Below are positions 24,024 through 35,637 of a stretch of DNA of 64,000 bases, piece after piece (the stretch's first letter is position 1; every line of letters begins with the position of its first letter). The notes beneath the pieces were generated by a model. The model was not told where the DNA came from, made no database searches, and saw only the letters and a program-made list of their open reading frames with translations. Source of the stretch: Candidatus Staskawiczbacteria bacterium (GTDB lineage: Bacteria > Patescibacteriota > Minisyncoccia > Minisyncoccales > Staskawiczbacteraceae). The translations under genes were made by a program, and so were the position numbers. Location: NCBI GenBank assembly GCA_903831095.1, contig CAIKWD010000011.1, positions 5,706 to 69,705 of the forward strand, given 5' to 3'.

Positions 24024-24512
24024 TCATATCCAAAAAATTGGGTTCAAATATATTACCCAGGCAGCGGCAGATGGCACAAAAACTAATAAATAAAAAATCA
24101 ATCCAGCTAATAGACTAAGTGCCAAAATCCATATATTAACAGCAATGTTTCCCTGCTTCTTCGCTAATACAATAATTGTTTTAATAATAATCCCAATTAA
24201 AATTACCGAAATTACAAAAAAACCCATCATCATAAAGCTATCCAAATTACTTTGGTCAATTTGAGTGGGAGCTTGGTCTCTAAAACCCCAAAGAATCATA
24301 TAAATAGGCATTATTATTATACCCGGAATTGCAAAATAAAGGCCAATGATAGTTCTAATAATTGCGCTTTTACCATATATAAAAATAATTATCAAAGAAA
24401 GTAAAACATTAGCAATCAAAAAAATATCTCCACTGATAAGGTTATAATAAAACCAAGCCCATAAAAAAACATACATAAAAAACCATGTTAAAACTTTAGA
24501 CTTTGAAATCAT
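24024..24512 (-). CDS. Hypothetical multi-pass membrane protein
   Basis: 162 aa with about five hydrophobic helices. No family recognised. It lies inside the rpsP-KH-trmD neighbourhood where rimM often sits. Confidence 0.6.
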   Translation of the reverse strand: MISKSKVLTWFFMYVFLWAWFYYNLISGDIFLIANVLLSLIIIFIYGKSAIIRTIIGLYFAIPGIIIMPIYMILWGFRDQAPTQIDQSNLDSFMMMGFFVISVILIGIIIKTIIVLAKKQGNIAVNIWILALSLLAGLIFYLLVFVPSAAAWVIYLNPIFWI

Positions 24513-24743: not shown

Positions 24744-24876
24744 GTTTCTCAATCTACTCTATATAATTACTCATTCCGTTCAAAATGAAAATAAATTTTC
24801 ATTCCTCACTTCATATCCTAATTATAGCATATACAAGAAGTCTTGTCAATAGATGCTATATGTTTGTACTACCAAC

Positions 24877-24899
24877 TAAAAAACCTGCTTTCCAGCAGG
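24877..24899 (-). terminator. Rho-independent terminator after rpsP
   Basis: Minus strand: CCTGCT-GGAA-AGCAGG followed by TTTTTTAG. Confidence 0.7.
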
Positions 24900-24916
24900 C
24901 TTTCAGATTTAAAATC

Positions 24917-25354
24917 TTATGCTGCTGCCTCGCCCGTAGGCGTAGCCTCAGGGCTACGGCCGAGGGGTTTTTCCTCTGCAGGTGCTGCTGGAGCTGGGGC
25001 TGGTGCTGCGGCCGGTGCAGCTGCTGGTGTAGCCTCGGCTGCATGTTTTGCCTCGCCCGTAGGCGTGGCCTCTGGGCTACGGCCGAGGGGCTTTTTGGAA
25101 ACGTTGATTTTCTTTGCGTCTATAATCTTTTCAGAAACCAAGAGGTTGTGTATTGAGGCCGAAGGCTGTGCGCCTTTGGATATCCAGTACAATATTCTTT
25201 CTTTGTTAAAGCTTTTCTTTTTTGTGAGCGGGTCTACATATCCCAAATCTTCAACAGCTCTTCCGCCTGTTGACGACCTTCTCTTATCTATTACAACCAC
25301 TCTGAAAAATGGCTGATTCTTTTTACCTTTTCTTGTTAATCTTATTGTAAGCAT
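24917..25354 (-). CDS. rpsP: 30S ribosomal protein S16 with ~60-aa Ala/Pro-rich C-terminal extension
   Basis: MLTIRLTRKGKKNQPFFRVVVIDKR... is the S16 core. The tail contains KKPLGRSPEATPTGEA twice and an (A/P)n run, all encoded by GC-rich repeat DNA. Confidence 0.9.
   Translation of the reverse strand: MLTIRLTRKGKKNQPFFRVVVIDKRRSSTGGRAVEDLGYVDPLTKKKSFNKERILYWISKGAQPSASIHNLLVSEKIIDAKKINVSKKPLGRSPEATPTGEAKHAAEATPAAAPAAAPAPAPAAPAEEKPLGRSPEATPTGEAAA
24927..24972. repeat. GC-rich palindromic unit, copy 1 (inside the rpsP 3' end)
   Basis: Plus strand: GCCTCGCCCGTAGGCGTAGCCTCAGGGCTACGGCCGAGGGGTTTTT. Inner stem CGTAGCC/GGCTACG, outer CCTCG/CGAGG. Confidence 0.7.
25050..25096. repeat. GC-rich palindromic unit, copy 2 (inside rpsP)
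   Basis: Plus strand: GCCTCGCCCGTAGGCGTGGCCTCTGGGCTACGGCCGAGGGGCTTTTT. It lies 123 nt (41 codons) from copy 1 with only a few substitutions. Confidence 0.7.
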
Positions 25355-27042: not shown

Positions 27043-30000
27043 TTACTGGAATGGAGATATTTCCTTCCACTCTGGCACCGCAGTATTATGGATTGAAATA
27101 GATAAATTAGTTGTTTTACTACAATTTCCAAAATTACCAAATACATCTGGAAGGGTTTTGTCAGTAATTGTTAACGTAATAACATGTACTCCTGCAGTAT
27201 CAAAAGTAATAGGACCAGGGTCAAAAGAAAGAACATTTTGGGAAATAATTTTTTCAATTTTATTATGTCCATTAGCATCTATTCCTCCACCAAAATCCCA
27301 ATCATATACAAAGTTTTTCTCTGCTTCTAGATGATTTGCTACCAAATCTTTACACAAAGGAGATTCAATACCATGAGTATCATTGTAATAACAAATAGAA
27401 TTATCAACAATTGTTATTGGTTCTTTAATCAAGAAATTCTGTTTGTTATTCTCAATGCTTATAGATGGAGCAGGCCATGGATGTGGGCCTTTATTAATAA
27501 GAGCACTTGCCCCAGCTGCAGCCAATGAACCTTTGCTATAGCTTACTGTTACGTTTTGTCCTTCGAATATAGTGCTAGAACTATCCAATGCCAAATTCAC
27601 AATATTTGGGTGAACAAGGTCTAATGAAGCACTAGCAATATTGTATTCAACTCCGCCAACTTTTACTGTAAACTGAGATTTTACCAAAGTTTGAGGATCG
27701 ATAACTTTATCAAAAGATACTGCAACAATTGTACCTTGCTCATTTACTACAATGTTAGTAATTTTAGGAGCTGCAACTGTTGTGGTAAAGGTTAAATAAG
27801 CAGACGCCCAAGTTGTACCAATACTATTAGATGCTTTAGCTGAAAAATAATATAATTTTTCAGAAGTCAAACCTGTAATATCTTTGGAAAAATCTGCTGC
27901 TCCCTGAGCCTGAGAATATGTATAACTATGATCCCATACTCCAGGAGTTTGTCCGCCGTCGTTGTCCCCCCAGTAAACTGTGACAGTTGGATTTTCTCCT
28001 CCTGTATCTGAAATACTTCCATTTATAGTAGCAGTATCTGATGCTACGTTTGTCGCAGGACTTAATGAAATATCAGGAGCTGTTTTCACATTTTCCGCAG
28101 ATTGAGGATAACTTATAAGTACAACTCCAGAACCTCCGCCTGCACAAGCGCCTCCTCCACCTCCTGTATTTGCCATTCCACCAACACTCATATTTCCTCC
28201 TCCACCATATCCACCAACGCCATTATGCCCACTTCCATAGCCGCCTCCGCCTCCTGCAAAATATCCACTTTGACCAAAGTCAATAAATTGAGGAAAATAT
28301 AATCCAACACCTCCATTGCCTCCATACTCTCCATAGCCTGCATTTTCTCCAACCCCTCCAGCGCCTCCTCCACCACTAGCACCAACATCTTCTCCGCAAG
28401 TTCCATGTCCACCATCATTACCTTGGCCAGGAGTCCCAACAGCAGTTCCACAATTCCAATCTTTACCTCCTCCTCCGCCAGAACCACCAGAACCACCATC
28501 ACTATAAGTTGCTCCACCCAAACCTCCACCTATTGCAACAATTCCATCAAAAACTGAATTTTGTCCTTTGCTTTGCCCACCTCCGCCAGCTCCGATTGTT
28601 ACGTTATATGTATTAAAAATTCCTGATGAAAGAACATGAGCATCATAATGTAACAAACCACCAGCTCCTCCTCCGCCACCAATCCAATAACCAGAACAAC
28701 CACCACCTCCACCTCCTGCTACAACAAGAGTTTCAACTTTTTTCAAAATAGCACTGGTGTTGGTAAATACTCCATTAGAATTAAATGCATGGACACATCT
28801 CATATTAGGAGTTGAGGTTCTACTAATATTCACAAGTTTTACATCTCCTCCAGAAGCAGAACAACTTGCCACAAAATCTAAAGAAGCAGTTGGCCAGCTT
28901 GTGCCAATACTGTTGGTTGCAGAAGCAGAAAAATAATACTTTGTACCAGGAATTAATCCGGAAATATTTTTACTGAAGTTGCCCAATCCTTGAGGTTGTG
29001 AATAAGTATATTTATGATCCCAATTGCCTACTATTTTCTTTCCATCATTATCACCCCAGTAAACTGTAACTATTGGATTTTCTCCACCAGTAGAACCAAT
29101 GTTTCCATTTAAAGTAGCAGCATTTAATCCCATATTTGTCGGTACATTTAAATTGACAGACGGAGTTGAAGCACCATAACTTACAATAACAATACCCGAA
29201 CCTCCATTTCCACCTTTATTATTTGCGTTATAATGAGATCCTCCGCCTCCCCCTCCGCCAGTATTTGCCCCAGCATCTCCTCCAGGCATATTAGTCTGGC
29301 TGTTTGGTGAACCACCTCCACCCCCATTTCCATTATTATATCCTGCACCTCCATAAGTTGTACCAACAGCTCCTCCTCCGCCACCTCCTATTCCGCCATT
29401 TCCTCCAGTTGACAAAGTATATGAAGCTCCCCCGCCTCCACCGCCCCAATAATAATCAGTTCCTAAAATATTATTTAAAATTCCAGGCCCCCCATTTGGT
29501 TGATTTGGACCATCTGCACCAGCTCCGCCAGCTCCTCCTCCACCGCCAGAATAATAATTGCTATTATTACTATTTCCTCCTCTATAACCTTGTCCAGAAA
29601 CCCCAACTCCACCAGCTACAGATCTGCTTGGCGTGTATCCTGAAGCTCCTCCGCCTGAACCACCAGCTGCGCCTGCTGCACCTGGAGCGTAGTCTTGATA
29701 TGAACTGCCACCATGTCCTCCACCTATTGCGGTTAAATTTCCAAAACTAGAATTACCGCCATTTGTCGCTGGAATAGAATATTGATGGCTTCCTGGTTGT
29801 CCTTCAGTCCCTGCAGCTGGCGCTCCTTTTCCACCGGCACCAACTACAACAGGCACTGCTGTTCCTGGGGTTAATCCAATTGATTGCCTATAAACTACTC
29901 CTCCGCCTCCGCCTCCACCACCCATATCCATTCCTCCACCTCCACCGCCAGCAACAACAAAAACCTCTGCATAAGATACTCCACTAGCAGGGACAAATGT

Positions 30001-33000
30001 CCCGCTTGATGTAAAAGTGTTTATGCATCTCCCATTATGAGACGTAATAGTTCCTCCCGTACTTGGACATCCTTCCACATGAGTGTAATCGGGGGTAGTA
30101 AAACTTGCTGAATATGGAGCCCACGTAGTACCTGCGGTATTTTTACCTCTTGCAGAAAAATAATATTTAGTTTTAGGATTTAAACTACCTATGTCTATAC
30201 TGAATTTTCCTATTCCTTGAGGTTGAATTGGAGTATCTGGAATAAAACTATGTTGCCATTTCCCTGCTGCTTTCAAACCATCCTCTGTGCCCCAAAATAC
30301 TGTAATAGTTGCATCCAAACCTGTGCTACCCAATGTTCCATTTAATGTGGCAGTTGATGGAGCTATGTTAGTAGCATCATCCATCAATAAATTAGGCTTT
30401 GCTTGTAAATCTATAAAGAAATCATCCTTCAAATTAAAATAACTATTGTAATCTGGATGGGAAACACATGGTATTGTATGCACGCCTCCGCATCCGCTGT
30501 ACCCCCAATATGACCACCAATAACATCCCGATATCGTAGAACAACTCGTTGGGTCTCCATAATAATCCCCACAATTTATATTCCAATCAGGTTCCCAGCA
30601 AGTGCAATCGCTTGTAGTCACACTTCTTCCTAATCTTTTAGCTGAAGGACAATACAATTGCTGGCTGAAATAAGAATCCCAATAATTTGCCACGCAGTTT
30701 CCGTCAGAAGTTCCTTTTACTCCTACACTATCACAATTTCCATCAGCCAAAACATAATTAGACATATAATCTGAACATTGTCCACCCCAATAAGACCAAT
30801 CACTCCCAGGATTATTAGTAAACAAATTTTTGCAGGCTGAAGAGCAGGCGCCATTTGCAGGGTCGCAGGTGCTAGCAGGAGGAATATCTTCACCTGGCAA
30901 AGCATCTCCTAAGACAAATCTCTGATATTGAAATCCTGTAAAATCTCCAGAAGAGATAGTATCTGCTTCACCATATCCATCAAAAAGAAAATCTTTGATT
31001 ATACTCCCACTAGAAGTATTAATTTTTACAAAGTACGGGATATAATATCCATAAGTTGCACCTTCATATTGGTAAGAAGCACCATACAAACTAACAACCC
31101 AGAGATTTTCACTATCATCAATGCTTATTGCGCTTGGGTTATATGAATAATAATGACCCATATAACTGCCAGTAGAGCCATTTATTTTTACTATTCCACT
31201 TTGATTAGTAATATAAACATTATCAGAGCCGTCTATTGCTATTTTACCAAAAACGCCACTAGTGTCACGATCACCGGCCCCGAATGTCCCAATTAAATTT
31301 CCCGTATAACCATCCAATTTTGTAACTGTTCCATCGTAATTATTTACAACCCAAACATTGTTTAAACTATCAACTGCAACTGCTCCAGGCCAAGCTCCAA
31401 CAGTATATGTTCCTAATATAGTTCCAGACTGGTTAACTTTCATAACAACTCCGCCACTTGGATGTGCACCAGCGCCAGTACCATCTGGTTGGTTGGTAAT
31501 CCAGACATTTCCATTGGCATCAGCGGCAATTCCACTGCCAGTGATAGGATAACTTCCTATTAACATCCCTGCTGCACTATATTTTGCGATACCAGAAGTC
31601 AACCTGTAATTAACGTAATTACTATAACTACTCCAGATATTTCCATAAATATCAATTGCTATACCTATATTAGATTCATCTGATAAATAACGAAAATCAT
31701 TATTTCCAGTAGTTGAAGCGCATGTATCTGCGATATGAACATTTCCTAATTCATCTAAGGCTATACCTCCTCCACCTGCATGTCCTTTATTATTGCCTAT
31801 GCCGTCACGATTTCCAGTTTCATAATGATCAACCAAATTCCCAGTTGAGTTGTCAAATTTGGCAACTAAACCATTAGCGTTTGTACACCACCAATCTGGT
31901 GGCACGTATCCCCCCGGGTTATTCATTTGTGCTTCATCATAAGATGTTGGCCCTACTTGAGCACTGTTTAAATAAATATAAGGGGTAGAAACATATGTTG
32001 TTTTGGCAACAAAACTTTTTGATGCTCCTCCTGCCCAAACATCTCCACCTGCATTAGTAACTTTGGCAAAATAATAATATGTTTCTCCTGTCTCCAACTC
32101 AGTAATATTTTGATAAAAATCTCCAGATGTACTAATTTGAGAAACTACAGCACTGTAATCCCAAGAATTGGAATTTGTCCACATATTAGTTGTACCCCAA
32201 TATACAGTGACAATTAAATTGGTTAAGTCAGATGCAGCAATATTTCCTTTTATAACTGCTGAAGAAGACCTTATCTTTGTTGCAGGAAAAAGAGTAATAT
32301 TGCTAGGCAAAGTAGTAAAGTTAGCTGAAGTTAAAGACCAGGCAGTTCCAATACTGTTTGTAGCAGAAACTGTGTAATAATATCTAGTATCAGTATTTAG
32401 TCCTGGAATAAACTTATTAAAATTTCCCATTCTTTGAGGCTGAACTGGGCTTGTGGGTACAGAACTGTGTTGCCAATTGCCTGGCACTTTCCCGCCATCG
32501 CTTGTGCCCCAATATACAGTGACAGTTGGCTTGTCTTTTCCAGTAGATGTAACTTTTCCATTAATAATTGCTGAATTAGGCGCTATATCGGAAGTAGTAT
32601 TTAAACTGACAGCAGGAGGAGCATCTTCTCCAACAAAAAATTTATTTTCCAAATTGAAATATTCCTCGTAATTAGGCAAAACAACACAAGGCAAATTTGT
32701 AGTAAGATCTTTGCATGAGCAATCATCAATATCTATTGTTCTAGCTACTCTTTCACTTGAAGGACATCCAAATCTAGAATTGGTTGTATAATCAAAAATC
32801 CATGCGCAGTCTCCATCTGTGCCAGATATTCCTAATCTGTCGCATAATGGATCTCCACTTATATTGGTATCTAAAGACCAATCATATATGTCGTTACACG
32901 AATTGTCATAGCTATAAGAAAAATCATCACTCCATAAATCACCCAAGTAGAAAATATCTTTACATGTATTAGAACAGCTATTTATAGAAGGATCACATCC

Positions 33001-35637
33001 AAAAGTGCCAGGCAATGTTGTAAAATTCAATGAAGATGCCGGCCAGCTATCTCCAAATTTATTGTGCGCCTTTACAGTAAAATAATATTTGGTTGCATGA
33101 TTTAAACCCATTATATTTTTTAAAAAAGCTCCAACGCCTTGTGGCTGGTCTGGACTTGAAACAACTGAACTGTGTTGCCAGCCAGAAGAATTTTTTTGCC
33201 CATCTATTGTGCCCCAGTATGCAGTGACTGTTGGATTCTCTCCGCCAGTATTGGAAATATTTCCATTAATAGTTGCTACCATTTTTCCTACTTTAGTTGC
33301 AGCACTAATAACAACAGTTGGAACACTAAAAGTAGTAAAACTAAAAAAGGAAGCTGTTGGCCAAGAAATCCCAGCACTATTTGTTGCTCGGGCAGTAAAA
33401 TAATACTTAGTTCCTGGATTTAAACCATTAATAGTTTTACTGAAAACACCAACTCCTTGGGGCTGGTATGGATCAGATACAACAGAACTACTATCCCAAC
33501 CTACCGAAGTATTTCCCTTATTAGTGGTACCCCAAAAAATCATTACAGTTGAATTATCTACTCCAGTATTAGTAATACTTCCGTTTATTGTAGCACTATT
33601 TGAGGTAATATTAGTTACATATGTAGTATAAACAATAGGAAAAGGAGTGGCAGCTAAAGTAGTGAAATTTAAGGAAGATGTAGCCCATATAACCCCAGTG
33701 TCATTAATTGCTCTTGCAGTAACATAATATTTAGTTCCTGGAGTTAATCCAGAAAAATTTTTATAAAAACTTACTACTTCCTGGGGCTGAATTGATGGAC
33801 TGGTTGGATATGAACTATGATCCCAATTTATTGGATTTTTCCCTCCATCTGTAGAACCCCAAAATACTGTTACAGTATTACTGCTACCAAAATAATCTGA
33901 AAAACCTCCACTGACAGTAGCTGTTGTTTGTGTTATAGCCGAGGTACTCAAACTTATTGGTATTACTCCAGCAACAAAACTTAAAGACTGATTAGCCCAA
34001 CTGGTTCCTATATCATTGCTTGCCTTGGCAGTAAAATGATATCTAGTCCCAGCAGTTAATCCGCTGATATTTTTTTCAAATAATCCTGTTTGATTCCCCA
34101 AAACAAAATTATTTTCCCATTTTGATGCATCATTTCCAAAATCATTTTTTCCCCAATATATAGTAACAGACGTGCTACTTCCTCCATCACTAACTACGTT
34201 TCCATTAAGGGTAGCTGTTGTTCCTACTGTATTTGTGGCATCACTCACAGTTACTGTTGGTGGACCATTAGTTTTAAAACCAAGTGAAACAGATGGCCAA
34301 ACAGTTTCAGCAACATTTGTCGCTTTTGCCGTAAAATAATAATTTCTTCCAGGAATCAACCCACTGACATTTAATGAAAAATTTCCAATACCCTGCGGTT
34401 GAGAAGGACTGCTGACAACAGAACTATGTTCCCAGTTTTCTGAAATTTGCCCACCATCGGTTGTGCCCCAATACATGGTAACAGTAGGATTGACTCCTCC
34501 TGTTGATATCACACGACCATTCAAAGTGGCAGTTGTAGACCCAACGGCAGCAGAATTAGTCAAAGCTATATTAAGTCCTCCATTATATGCGACAAGTGTA
34601 GGCGCAGGGGCATTACCACGAAAAATTATCCATCCAGTCAATGGCGGAGTAGAGCTGGTAATACAATTAGTATGGTTCTGTATATCACACAAATAATAAG
34701 GAGTGAATGTTGTATCTGTTGTAGGCATCAATTGCCATCCAGAATCAAATAATATTATATGAGTATCATCTTTGGTATACATTACATGACCATCAGGAGC
34801 TATGTTATTCCAATAAAAACCATTCCAATCAGAAGATCCGGCGTCTTTAACAATATATCCTAAGTTTGATTTTTCAAGTTGAGTATAAAAACTTAAAGAA
34901 GCGGTTGGCCAAATAATATCTTCTGATAAAATGTTTATTGTATTGCTACGTGTTAGATCACTATCTATCCTATCTGACGCAGAAAAATAATATTTAGTGC
35001 CAGGAATCAAATCCGAAACATCCAATAAAAAACTATTACTAGGGCCAGATGTAAGTTGAGTAGAACTGTGTTGCCAATTCTCAGGTACTTTTCCTCCGTC
35101 GGTTGTGCCCCAATACATAGTTATATTATGACCTACTGAATCATCGGTAAAAGCACACTTTAAGGTAGAAGTCGACGACGTTATGCTGACAGCATTATTT
35201 GGTGCGATATCAGTATAATAATCGGTAAAAGTTAAAGGGGCCGAAGGCCATGATATACCTGCACTATTCTCAGCAGAAGCTGAAAAATAATATTTGACCC
35301 CAGAAGTTAAACCATAAAAATCATTAATAAAATTACTTATAGGCTGAGGCTGAGGAGGATTAGTTGGTGCAGAACTGTGTTGCCAATTTCCAGGTACCCT
35401 TCCTCCATCGGTTGTCCCCCAATATATAGTAACACGAGGATTACCTCCAACACTACCAGTTATGTTTCCATTTACACGTATTCGGGAATAATCTGTAAAG
35501 CCAGATGAAATACTAAGAGTAACTGTTAGAGGATCAGACGTAGCAAAAACAGTGTTGCAAATAAAAAAAGCAAAAAACAAGGAAGCTAAAACTACTAGAA
35601 ATAGCTGAACTTTTATTTTTGCTTTTTTAAGTGACAT
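27043..35637 (-). CDS. Giant secreted mosaic surface protein (2864 aa): FN3-like repeats, NHL-type beta-propeller, two glycine-rich domains, Ig-like and PKD-like C-terminus
   Basis: Signal/anchor MSLKKAKIKVQLFLVVLASLFFAFFICNTVFA. Twelve units carry (V/I)T(V/I/M)(Y/F)WG..DGG....W.HS...PQ...PGTKYYF.A.A.N..G..W. Six NHL-like blades (GIALDELGNVHIAD, GIAIDIYGNIWSS, GIAADANGNVWITN, AVAVDSLNNVWVVN, KIAIDGSDNVYITN, AISIDDSENLWVVS). Two blocks start ..F.S.G.F.......(V/L)VVAGGGGGG followed by long G-runs. C-terminal YDWDFGGG. Confidence 0.85.
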   Translation of the reverse strand: MSLKKAKIKVQLFLVVLASLFFAFFICNTVFATSDPLTVTLSISSGFTDYSRIRVNGNITGSVGGNPRVTIYWGTTDGGRVPGNWQHSSAPTNPPQPQPISNFINDFYGLTSGVKYYFSASAENSAGISWPSAPLTFTDYYTDIAPNNAVSITSSTSTLKCAFTDDSVGHNITMYWGTTDGGKVPENWQHSSTQLTSGPSNSFLLDVSDLIPGTKYYFSASDRIDSDLTRSNTINILSEDIIWPTASLSFYTQLEKSNLGYIVKDAGSSDWNGFYWNNIAPDGHVMYTKDDTHIILFDSGWQLMPTTDTTFTPYYLCDIQNHTNCITSSTPPLTGWIIFRGNAPAPTLVAYNGGLNIALTNSAAVGSTTATLNGRVISTGGVNPTVTMYWGTTDGGQISENWEHSSVVSSPSQPQGIGNFSLNVSGLIPGRNYYFTAKATNVAETVWPSVSLGFKTNGPPTVTVSDATNTVGTTATLNGNVVSDGGSSTSVTIYWGKNDFGNDASKWENNFVLGNQTGLFEKNISGLTAGTRYHFTAKASNDIGTSWANQSLSFVAGVIPISLSTSAITQTTATVSGGFSDYFGSSNTVTVFWGSTDGGKNPINWDHSSYPTSPSIQPQEVVSFYKNFSGLTPGTKYYVTARAINDTGVIWATSSLNFTTLAATPFPIVYTTYVTNITSNSATINGSITNTGVDNSTVMIFWGTTNKGNTSVGWDSSSVVSDPYQPQGVGVFSKTINGLNPGTKYYFTARATNSAGISWPTASFFSFTTFSVPTVVISAATKVGKMVATINGNISNTGGENPTVTAYWGTIDGQKNSSGWQHSSVVSSPDQPQGVGAFLKNIMGLNHATKYYFTVKAHNKFGDSWPASSLNFTTLPGTFGCDPSINSCSNTCKDIFYLGDLWSDDFSYSYDNSCNDIYDWSLDTNISGDPLCDRLGISGTDGDCAWIFDYTTNSRFGCPSSERVARTIDIDDCSCKDLTTNLPCVVLPNYEEYFNLENKFFVGEDAPPAVSLNTTSDIAPNSAIINGKVTSTGKDKPTVTVYWGTSDGGKVPGNWQHSSVPTSPVQPQRMGNFNKFIPGLNTDTRYYYTVSATNSIGTAWSLTSANFTTLPSNITLFPATKIRSSSAVIKGNIAASDLTNLIVTVYWGTTNMWTNSNSWDYSAVVSQISTSGDFYQNITELETGETYYYFAKVTNAGGDVWAGGASKSFVAKTTYVSTPYIYLNSAQVGPTSYDEAQMNNPGGYVPPDWWCTNANGLVAKFDNSTGNLVDHYETGNRDGIGNNKGHAGGGGIALDELGNVHIADTCASTTGNNDFRYLSDESNIGIAIDIYGNIWSSYSNYVNYRLTSGIAKYSAAGMLIGSYPITGSGIAADANGNVWITNQPDGTGAGAHPSGGVVMKVNQSGTILGTYTVGAWPGAVAVDSLNNVWVVNNYDGTVTKLDGYTGNLIGTFGAGDRDTSGVFGKIAIDGSDNVYITNQSGIVKINGSTGSYMGHYYSYNPSAISIDDSENLWVVSLYGASYQYEGATYGYYIPYFVKINTSSGSIIKDFLFDGYGEADTISSGDFTGFQYQRFVLGDALPGEDIPPASTCDPANGACSSACKNLFTNNPGSDWSYWGGQCSDYMSNYVLADGNCDSVGVKGTSDGNCVANYWDSYFSQQLYCPSAKRLGRSVTTSDCTCWEPDWNINCGDYYGDPTSCSTISGCYWWSYWGYSGCGGVHTIPCVSHPDYNSYFNLKDDFFIDLQAKPNLLMDDATNIAPSTATLNGTLGSTGLDATITVFWGTEDGLKAAGKWQHSFIPDTPIQPQGIGKFSIDIGSLNPKTKYYFSARGKNTAGTTWAPYSASFTTPDYTHVEGCPSTGGTITSHNGRCINTFTSSGTFVPASGVSYAEVFVVAGGGGGGMDMGGGGGGGGVVYRQSIGLTPGTAVPVVVGAGGKGAPAAGTEGQPGSHQYSIPATNGGNSSFGNLTAIGGGHGGSSYQDYAPGAAGAAGGSGGGASGYTPSRSVAGGVGVSGQGYRGGNSNNSNYYSGGGGGAGGAGADGPNQPNGGPGILNNILGTDYYWGGGGGGASYTLSTGGNGGIGGGGGGAVGTTYGGAGYNNGNGGGGGSPNSQTNMPGGDAGANTGGGGGGGSHYNANNKGGNGGSGIVIVSYGASTPSVNLNVPTNMGLNAATLNGNIGSTGGENPIVTVYWGDNDGKKIVGNWDHKYTYSQPQGLGNFSKNISGLIPGTKYYFSASATNSIGTSWPTASLDFVASCSASGGDVKLVNISRTSTPNMRCVHAFNSNGVFTNTSAILKKVETLVVAGGGGGGCSGYWIGGGGGAGGLLHYDAHVLSSGIFNTYNVTIGAGGGGQSKGQNSVFDGIVAIGGGLGGATYSDGGSGGSGGGGGKDWNCGTAVGTPGQGNDGGHGTCGEDVGASGGGGAGGVGENAGYGEYGGNGGVGLYFPQFIDFGQSGYFAGGGGGYGSGHNGVGGYGGGGNMSVGGMANTGGGGGACAGGGSGVVLISYPQSAENVKTAPDISLSPATNVASDTATINGSISDTGGENPTVTVYWGDNDGGQTPGVWDHSYTYSQAQGAADFSKDITGLTSEKLYYFSAKASNSIGTTWASAYLTFTTTVAAPKITNIVVNEQGTIVAVSFDKVIDPQTLVKSQFTVKVGGVEYNIASASLDLVHPNIVNLALDSSSTIFEGQNVTVSYSKGSLAAAGASALINKGPHPWPAPSISIENNKQNFLIKEPITIVDNSICYYNDTHGIESPLCKDLVANHLEAEKNFVYDWDFGGGIDANGHNKIEKIISQNVLSFDPGPITFDTAGVHVITLTITDKTLPDVFGNFGNCSKTTNLSISIHNTAVPEWKEISPFQ

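Follow-up and report, generated by a model that had tools for sequence, protein, structure and literature searches.

How does an essential ribosomal protein come to carry, in its coding sequence, what looks like a pair of DNA hairpins? This question is raised by rpsP, the gene for ribosomal protein bS16, in a stretch of 64,000 nucleotides from Candidatus Staskawiczbacteria bacterium (assembly GCA_903831095.1, contig CAIKWD010000011.1, positions 5,706 to 69,705), which we call the window throughout. The rpsP product is a member of bS16: it matches the Pfam profile Ribosomal_S16 (PF00886) over residues 8-65 (E 3.7e-18, 65.6 bits against a curated cutoff of 27), and the best named among its 1654 homologues is the S16 of Candidatus Staskawiczbacteria, a Parcubacteria lineage of the Candidate Phyla Radiation (CPR). 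The last 57 codons of the gene reach a GC content of 0.58-0.67 over 100 nt, and up to 0.72 over 60 nt, whereas the window as a whole stands at 0.355. A first-pass annotation had described this tail as being built from two near-identical palindromic units of about 46 nt, 123 nt apart and similar to plus-strand intrinsic terminators, and had suggested that repeat DNA is read through in frame. The comparisons reported here make it very probable, in our opinion, that the tail received two in-frame insertions of a dispersed hairpin family, which were kept thanks to their compatible length and frame and to the disordered tail, and which are most likely neutral passengers.

The GC-rich tail and its two palindromic units were recovered by an independent repeat search, which returned two direct copies of 47 nt (24926-24972 and 25049-25095), 94% identical and offset by 123 nt (41 codons), each of them with a 12-nt inverted repeat, CCTCGCCCGTAG / CTACGGCCGAGG, that has one mismatch. 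A 41-nt degenerate pattern allowing up to three mismatches matches twice in the 64 kb, both times at the rpsP units, and never in 100 shuffles. Read on the mRNA strand, the two repeat copies give KKPLGRSPEATPTGEA and EKPLGRSPEATPTGEA, to which the tail peptides as first given have to be corrected; three nucleotides differ between them, each a synonymous change at a third codon position, and both copies encode the same 14 residues. To judge from the alignments, the biological unit is 39 nt and not 46, with the extra shared flank AAAA(A/G)CC...A belonging to two similar target sites. Each 39-nt unit (13 codons) is an imperfect palindrome, with a 12-bp stem that contains a fixed G.G mismatch, and a variable interior. 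On the mRNA strand, copy 1 is CCTCGGCCGTAGCCCAGAGGCCACGCCTACGGGCGAGGC, inserted at AAAAAGCC^AAAACAT, and copy 2 is CCTCGGCCGTAGCCCTGAGGCTACGCCTACGGGCGAGGC, inserted at GAAAAACC^AGCAGCATAA (after GAAAAACC: AGCAGC), two codons ahead of the stop; both are translated as (P)LGRSPEATPTGE(A). Thus, as in the protein-coding palindromes known elsewhere, each unit is a short hairpin that lies wholly in an open reading frame (ORF) and in frame. Each folds to about -19.5 kcal/mol on either strand. We dropped fold energy as a proof of the units, since the local z of 61-nt stretches around them (-0.5 to -1.75) is weak and unexceptional for such GC-rich sequence, which folds well regardless; they are taken as real because of the repeat itself and of its recurrence in other genomes.

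The origin of the units is best read from a relative that lacks them. The closest one among the matches listed is a protein of 114 aa (P0005; P-numbers denote comparison proteins and L-numbers comparison loci), which has a core 98% identical to that of the window protein and a tail, KKPKHPAEAAPAVAPAATPVPAAEKPAA, with neither unit. Its gene, locus L001, aligns to the window DNA with a clean 39-nt gap at the first unit, and it ends, without copy 2, as GAAAAACCAGCAGCTTAA. When CCTCGGCCGTAGCCC(A/T)GAGGC(C/T)ACGCCTACGGGCGAGGC is removed at both places, the window tail becomes ...INVSKKPKHAAEATPAAAPAAAPAPAPAAPAEEKPAA followed by the stop codon, which runs collinear with the L001 tail ...KKPKHPAEAAPAVAPAATPVPAAEKPAA, through exact junctions, to the common end GAAAAACCAGCAGC(A/T)TAA, and the nucleotide identity is 90% over the whole gene. 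An orthologue therefore exists that lacks the unit while the rest of the protein is collinear, and this difference between the window and L001 is directly established. Because L001 has neither unit and deleting both makes the genes collinear, the alignment argues for clean in-frame insertions into an older Ala/Pro/Glu/Lys tail, and the spacer between them is ancestral tail sequence. The idea that repeat DNA is read through in frame has been upheld in this way, with the units missing in L001 and the palindrome present in 39 other genomes. At the junctions there is an ambiguity of one base (C), and no further target-site duplication is seen at either S16 site. A tandem duplication of 123 nt was considered as the source of the second copy and rejected, as the intervening sequence is unrepeated and both flanks are insert-free in L001; one S16 copy could plausibly have been templated from the other through the shared AAAA(A/G)CC microhomology. 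The alleles with and without inserts coexist in the same sample, ERZ27313568, from which both L001 and the window allele (L003) come. Their nucleotide difference of about 10% points, therefore, to two related populations and not to strains of one.

The tail itself is older than the units, because all 120 listed homologues, with total lengths of 113-191 aa, show an Ala/Pro/Glu/Lys-rich tail after ...SEKIIDAKK. It cannot be described as built from palindromes, given that the two units add just 26 of its approximately 57 residues. It is clade-wide and variable in length and sequence. The unit motif is missing from all the other 119 entries in the list, L001 included; among 80 related S16 loci, it is present in L073 alone, from a second species. 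These counts bear on the converse explanation, where the units would be ancestral and L001 would have lost both by precise deletion between short repeats. Palindromes are indeed prone to deletion, and the one-base ambiguity at the junctions fits slippage; however, the units are absent from 119 of the 120 homologues in the list and from 79 of the 80 related loci, many listed tails end in ...(E/V)KPAA like that of L001, and every other lineage would have had to lose both units by two separate, precise deletions, which leaves such a history with very little credibility. With insertion into an existing tail as the preferred reading, it is relevant that an AlphaFold2 model (from a 65-sequence alignment) gives a mean confidence (pLDDT) of 84-97 for the 10-residue blocks of residues 1-80 and 78 for residues 81-90, against 43-62 and no secondary structure in the tail. 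This disorder, as predicted, would make the tail a site tolerant of extra residues.

Is the palindrome peculiar to this gene? We searched the GTDB set, with one genome per species, for the pattern CCTCGGCCGTAG-N(8-20)-CTACGGGCGAGG, which has 24 fixed bases and a chance expectation below 1 by our own estimate. The exact-stem pattern yielded 42 copies at 39 genome loci, nearly all of them in metagenome-assembled genomes of Patescibacteria (Parcubacteria/Paceibacterota, Nealson-, Adler-, Nomura- and Staskawiczbacteria, several with doubtful NCBI labels). The copies lie in unrelated places, coding and non-coding, as is expected of dispersed palindromes that also occur in proteins. A covariance model (R1), built from 38 hairpin copies, scores copy 1 at 54.1 bits (E 7.6e-10) and copy 2 at 53.7 bits (E 9e-10); when run with filters off on the 64 kb, it detects the two rpsP copies only, whereas in the other loci it adds a few copies, shorter or diverged, with 1-3 copies per 8-kb locus. 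The interior of the hairpin is variable, and one class of 38 nt is CCCWGAGGCYACG. Copies occur in tandem, head to tail (L013:1460-1536, L023:348-413, L018:7884-7921 and adjacent sequence), inverted (L024, L033, L034, L045), and as extra hairpins in T-loops (L026, L048, L015), and shorter forms of 25-30 nt have no inner helix (L129, L048:4238-4262, L015:7121-7144, L133). The tandem copies and the short forms suggest hairpins nested in the loops of other hairpins. Junctions share just a weak YC^R motif (GTC^TAA, TTC^GA, GCC^AAA, ACC^AGC, TCC^AAA), and no target-site duplication is visible at them. The hairpin pattern has no match in a viral contig collection, and Rfam holds no family for the hairpin or for the tRNA-fragment context described below. 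A search of a protein database of 5.8 billion sequences with the four open-frame translations, joined by X, returned four candidates, none with E <= 10, although motifs of 14 residues cannot reach significance in such a search. One of the hosts, contig JAGVYX010000048.1 (L034), is labelled Candidatus Woesearchaeota archaeon and carries the hairpin together with a GIY-YIG gene (P0152), which may be either a transfer between CPR bacteria and DPANN archaea or a binning error.

Most copies of the family have one and the same home. About 30 of the 42 are flanked as ..TTGSGRGATCGTC[hairpin]CTAATGGTAGGACA.., at the site GATCGTC^TAATGG of a tRNA-Gln 5′ fragment: the flanks are the acceptor and D-arm of this tRNA, the hairpin occupies the D-loop, and the fragment, a non-functional duplicate, ends at the anticodon stem. 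Some 15-50 nt past the fragment there is an ORF of about 80 aa for a GIY-YIG protein (PF01541, E 1e-12 to 1e-16), consisting of the catalytic domain only, which is followed by the intact tRNA-Gln gene. Altogether, a GIY-YIG gene lies no more than 1 kb away from 24 of the 42 copies. To avoid circularity, we also sampled from the protein side, with 47 GIY-YIG homologues and eight contexts inspected (L129-L136). The exact-stem hairpin was found again in tRNA-Gln cassettes (L131/L132, L134), accompanied by a 25-nt short form (L129/L130) and by a perfect-stem variant placed elsewhere in the tRNA fragment, in the acceptor stem (L133). The tandem, T-loop, inverted and shifted (L133) copies show that the hairpin can occupy more than one position. 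More distant GIY-YIG genes, at 42-47% identity, have the same layout at tRNA-Ser(GGA) (L135) and tRNA-Tyr (L136), where the duplicated fragment holds GC hairpins of other kinds in its D-loop or anticodon loop. The recurring architecture (for instance L011:5610-6010, L026:1380-2140 on the minus strand, L048:3700-4310 and L129-L136) is thus a tRNA 5′ duplicate, broken in a loop by one or more GC hairpins, which a GIY-YIG ORF and the intact tRNA follow in this order; both the family and these contexts are matters of direct observation. The stems stay constant across GIY-YIG proteins that are 59-76% identical to one another, an invariance partly due to how the copies were found, and together with the fixed G.G mismatch this suggests recognition by a protein. 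As a speculation, the hairpin in the cassette may keep the direct tRNA repeats from recombining, or it may destroy the site that the nuclease itself targets. In L131, L133 and L134 (at 1441-1455), the GIY-YIG ORF overlaps the start of the intact tRNA-Gln gene, so that its last five codons (..QCGVV or ..DSGIV) are the tRNA acceptor and D-stem and its stop is the TAA of the D-loop.

The S16 copies are outside this architecture: they are solo hairpins, in a window where neither tRNA-Gln, nor GIY-YIG genes (best tblastn E 2.3), nor other GC hairpins were found. They are accompanied by three more copies read inside proteins (Table 1): in the C-terminal tail of a ClpB-type ATPase (L039), within RuvX from the opposite strand (L028), and in the S16 tail of L073. 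The five coding copies measure 39, 39, 39, 39 and 33 nt (terminal C counted), all multiples of three, against 7 of the 40 non-coding copies (hypergeometric p = 6.5e-4), and the four sense-oriented ones share the frame that gives a Pro/Gly/Ser/Thr/Glu/Ala peptide; this filter on length and frame is directly observed. In either orientation, a TAG closes one of the three frames, and frame use is, therefore, constrained by the DNA. The L073 copy has a blemish of its own, a 1-nt frameshift just upstream of the element (L073:1170-1240; GAGGGAA, where the frame needs GAGGAA), by which the assembled ORF stops at the in-hairpin TAG; the cause may be a fault of the assembly, or the tail may really be truncated.

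That frameshift, and the very short contigs that most samples yield around rpsP, could be taken as signs that in rpsP as well the units are artefacts of assembly or sequencing, for instance from a chimeric join or a hairpin resembling an adapter. However, two pipelines, working on several samples, produced 11-12 independent contigs that encode the identical 145-aa protein, for which reason we regard the unit-bearing allele as real, and moreover the interiors of the copies vary between genomes, their contexts are consistent and the reading frame is kept, all of which makes an artefact extremely unlikely. A different explanation would see in PLGRSPEATPTGEA a selected peptide motif, originated by internal duplication and kept for some role at the protein level, in the ribosome or elsewhere, with the palindrome as a by-product. 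This would agree with the same 14 residues in both copies, whose three differences are all synonymous, and with the same frame being used in L039 and L073. Yet two of these differences are within the element, in the part that is variable in non-coding copies too, and therefore they do not point to protein-level selection; about 37 of the 42 other copies are non-coding and RuvX reads the opposite strand; the sequence between the S16 copies is unduplicated and both flanks are insert-free in L001; the region is predicted to be disordered; and the TAG in one frame per orientation leaves it to the DNA to constrain the frame. Selection for the peptide appears, in view of all this, highly unlikely.

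A third possibility is that the hairpin matters as RNA, either in the rpsP transcript or in an antisense one, as a 3'-proximal protection from exonucleases, a translation pausing signal or a plus-strand terminator that stops antisense transcription, its presence being selected and its translation incidental. Hairpins of the REP type are thought to be RNA elements downstream of genes (PMC3733652), and the units fold comparably well on both strands. Besides, tails of related S16 genes hold other in-frame GC hairpins in many cases, and around 15 of 74 fold better than their codon shuffles (z < -2.2; the window tail has -2.3 and the insert-free L001 +1.5). Against such a role, the closest listed relative and most of the clade have no units, a strong conventional terminator already follows the stop codon, the local z of the units is weak, and this DNA is found in either orientation, within tRNA fragments as well as in proteins other than S16, without any common position in a transcript. 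A structural requirement across the clade was likewise discarded, because tails and S16 core have the same mean z (-0.9), which marks the inserts as sporadic. As for the terminator, the T-run that follows each unit on the plus strand is the complement of the Lys-Pro codons AAA AAG CC and GAA AAA CC, both present in the insert-free L001, so the T-run is older than the insert and the likeness is coincidental. The units were not called by the terminator scan, there is no U-run after the hairpin on the mRNA strand and no plus-strand gene to end, and the first-pass view of the units as plus-strand terminators was abandoned, whereas the stop (24917-24919) and the genuine minus-strand terminator after it (z -3.3) are where that annotation had expected them. 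Overall, we consider a function as RNA structure improbable, and the PLGRSPEATPTGEA of the S16 units most likely a neutral passenger, neither a terminator nor a selected peptide.

Related S16 tails differ widely among the 80 loci, and several of them contain in-frame GC hairpins of other kinds, such as DLPAQAG (CCTGCCTGCGCAGGCAGG), SLAPEG (GCCTCGCCCCCGAAGGGGCGGG), APQSGAP (AGCCCCGCAAAGCGGGGCT) and TIPPKADL (ATTCCGCCAAAGGCGGAT). Unrelated hairpins of this sort were noticed in L049, L053, L057, L060, L064, L069, L077, L086, L091, L092 and L098; some recur between species (DLPAQAG, CCTGCCTGCGCAGGCAGG, and SGGPVTIPPKxDL), and AGCCCCGCAAAGCGGGGCT is a classic terminator-like one. Two of the S16 relatives have a GIY-YIG gene, short or degenerate, between rnc and rpsP (L099:1216-1480, L097:1257-1463). 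In L099, a GC-rich inverted repeat of 13 nt (ACCCCGCCCTCTA ... TAGAGGGCGGGGT) encloses this gene, much as though it lay in the loop of a long hairpin.

Returning to insertion of a dispersed hairpin, a path for the S16 tail can be outlined. The hairpin is probably mobile, and it would be copied as DNA, as a non-autonomous mobile or gene-converting element. Its usual home is the D-loop of the tRNA-Gln 5′ duplicate, just upstream of the GIY-YIG gene of about 80 aa that abuts the intact tRNA-Gln, and copies would occasionally land elsewhere. Copies in genes would persist only if their length is a multiple of three, their frame is open and the site tolerates extra residues, and the disordered Ala/Pro-rich tail of S16 would be such a site, with PLGRSPEATPTGEA as the translated hairpin. 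The driver may be the GIY-YIG nuclease, through repair that is break-induced or templated by microhomology, a doubtful suggestion at this stage. More broadly, and tentatively, since we would give it somewhat less than an even chance, CPR bacteria may harbour a mobile system not described so far, in which minimal GIY-YIG genes, of about 80 aa, would invade tRNA genes by homing (that for Gln and, with other hairpins, those for Ser and Tyr) and duplicate their 5′ part, with hairpins recopied on their own to permissive sites, where S16, ClpB and RuvX, among other essential proteins, would gain coding sequence from them. In such a system, the tRNA duplicate would always be broken by sequence-conserved GC hairpins in its loops, and the permissive sites would be tRNA-like loops, the loops of other hairpins and disordered protein segments.

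Several points weigh against the insertion of a mobile hairpin. The window has only two copies, both in rpsP, and neither a GIY-YIG gene nor a tRNA-Gln, so that these 64 kb do not show the hairpin to be multi-copy within the genome. The stems were fixed by the search pattern, so that their conservation is partly a matter of ascertainment, and the independent sample amounts to four tRNA-Gln cassettes. The junctions show no target-site duplication and only a weak YC^R motif, which point to no particular mechanism of transposition. All the D-loop copies could descend from one insertion that travelled with the cassette. Finally, the hairpin may have a role in the rpsP mRNA, or the peptide may have one.

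Other bacteria also have extensions of bS16, and Ala/Pro/Lys-rich C-terminal tails occur in Actinobacteria and others. Like them, the tail described here is low in complexity, disordered and variable in length after a conserved fold, but part of it has been traced to an inserted DNA element shared with non-coding loci. Similarly, the units resemble an intrinsic terminator on the plus strand (a GC hairpin and then a T-run), except that the T-run corresponds to pre-existing Lys codons, the strand is the wrong one for rpsP, and no plus-strand gene lies upstream.

Among mobile hairpins, optional GC clusters of 46 bp are found inside yeast var1, the gene for a mitochondrial small-subunit ribosomal protein, so that the insertion into a ribosomal-protein gene is tolerated there as in the CPR case. 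In the GC42 cluster of yeast mitochondria, stems are conserved and loops variable, an AG target-site duplication is formed and the mechanism of transposition is unsettled (PMC4478555). GC42 and the CPR hairpin are both GC-rich hairpins of about 40 nt in AT-rich genomes, with conserved stems, variable loops and presence/absence polymorphism; however, the AG duplication and the abundance per genome of the former contrast with the YC^R junction and low copy number of the latter, whose host is bacterial and which shows no homology. We discarded a GC42-type assignment, as no AG target-site duplication occurs at either S16 junction.

Closer parallels exist in bacteria. Rickettsia palindromic elements (RPE) are protein-coding palindromes (Ogata et al. 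2002; Claverie & Ogata 2003, both as cited in PMC3733652), and intragenic REPs fall in loops or at the ends of proteins, at times with two in one gene, and are regarded as neutral (Di Nocera et al. 2013, PMC3733652). With both, the S16 hairpin has in common that short hairpin repeats are present between genes and within ORFs, in frame and sometimes doubled, in termini, loops and linkers of conserved proteins whose orthologues differ in their presence. The likeness is one of features, with no sequence relationship apparent, and the host is here a CPR bacterium. The S16 hairpin is scarce (2 per 64 kb), yet its stems are identical across many genomes, it lacks the terminal unpaired GTAG/CGTC tag and the CCA tail of REPs, and the gene found beside the CPR hairpin is the GIY-YIG one at tRNA-Gln, whereas the partner of REPs is a RAYT, an IS200/IS605-like tyrosine transposase. 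Membership in the GTAG/CGTC REPs was rejected on their definition (PMC3733652), because the GTAG of our hairpin is inside the stem and no such tag is present; the CGTC next to D-loop copies is tRNA flank, absent at the S16, ClpB and RuvX sites.

The cassette has its own relatives. SegB of phage T4 is a free-standing GIY-YIG homing endonuclease in a tRNA region (PMC2330249), and the rRNA genes of CPR bacteria contain non-intron inserts that encode GIY-YIG proteins, in addition to many short ORF-less inserts at the tips of stem-loops (PMC11270868). In all of these, as in the tRNA-Gln cassette, a small GIY-YIG gene is in or beside highly conserved RNA genes, but the S16 units carry no nuclease gene. 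In the literature searched, we found no account of the tRNA-Gln cassette, of its hairpin, or of the hairpin in CPR proteins.

Part of an essential ribosomal protein can, then, be traced base for base to a small DNA hairpin, selfish or structural, whose usual place is at tRNA loci beside genes for nucleases; the case illustrates cleanly how new sequence enters disordered segments of proteins. Protein-coding palindromes, known in Rickettsia and yeast mitochondria, are extended by this case to the Candidate Phyla Radiation, which suggests a general link between reduced AT-rich genomes and invading GC hairpins. The hairpin points to a GIY-YIG/tRNA cassette of fixed architecture, open to direct biochemistry, and if the homing system proposed above is true, the S16 tail would be a visible mark left by a process that actively generates new protein sequence in reduced genomes. 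On the practical side, inserts of this kind inflate or scramble the tails of ribosomal proteins, and they break assemblies at marker genes for CPR phylogeny.

Table 1. Features of the rpsP region of the window, and hairpin copies read inside proteins of other genomes.
Feature	Position	Strand or frame	Basis or sequence
rpsP coding sequence (bS16, 145 aa, stop included)	24917..25354	minus	ORF list; PF00886 match; same protein on 11-12 metagenome contigs
S16 core, residues 1-88	25091..25354	minus	kept across 120 listed homologues; AlphaFold2 pLDDT
C-terminal tail, residues 89-145, Ala/Pro/Glu/Lys-rich, predicted disordered, holds both inserts	24920..25090	minus	GC 0.65-0.72; pLDDT 43-62
Hairpin copy 1, 39 nt	25050..25088	minus	gap at orthologous L001 site; covariance model R1
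Ala/Pro-rich spacer between hairpin copies, KHAAEATPAAAPAAAPAPAPAAPAEEKP	24966..25049	minus	aligns with L001 KHPAEAAPAVAPAATPVPAAEKP
Hairpin copy 2, 39 nt	24927..24965	minus	gap at orthologous L001 site; covariance model R1
rpsP intrinsic terminator, AAAGCCUGCUGGAAAGCAGGUUUUUU	24878..24903	minus	inverted repeat I9; -15.2 kcal/mol, z -3.27
Consensus sigma-70-type promoter, TTGACA-17-TGnTATAAT	24821..24849	minus	12/12 consensus match; conserved in L001 and L003
ClpB-type ATPase, L039 (Staskawiczbacteria)	C-terminal tail after D2-small domain	S16 frame	...IVFDS-PLGRSLKASPTGEA-NISRLAKAKK (stop)
RuvX, L028 (Adlerbacteria)	within protein	opposite strand	ASPVGTGLRPRG
S16 of a second species, L073 (core identity 85%)	tail	S16 frame	...ESKPVEEA-LGRSSEAKPTGEA-KQEKPAG...EKPV (stop)

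The gene upstream of rpsP encodes RNase III; downstream of it come genes for a small membrane protein and for a KH protein of the KhpA type. Right after the rpsP terminator, the promoter listed in Table 1 reads TTGACA-17-TGcTATAAT, with an extended -10 box; it is outside the hairpin element and marks the end of the rpsP unit, and presumably it drives the gene for the membrane protein, of 162 aa, at 24024-24512. The sole other GC-rich spot of the window, near 29631, is accounted for by a single ORF of 2864 aa (27043-35637, minus strand), in which a domain of about 100 aa (..TVTxYWGTTDGG..WxHSS..) is repeated many times, besides long stretches rich in Gly.

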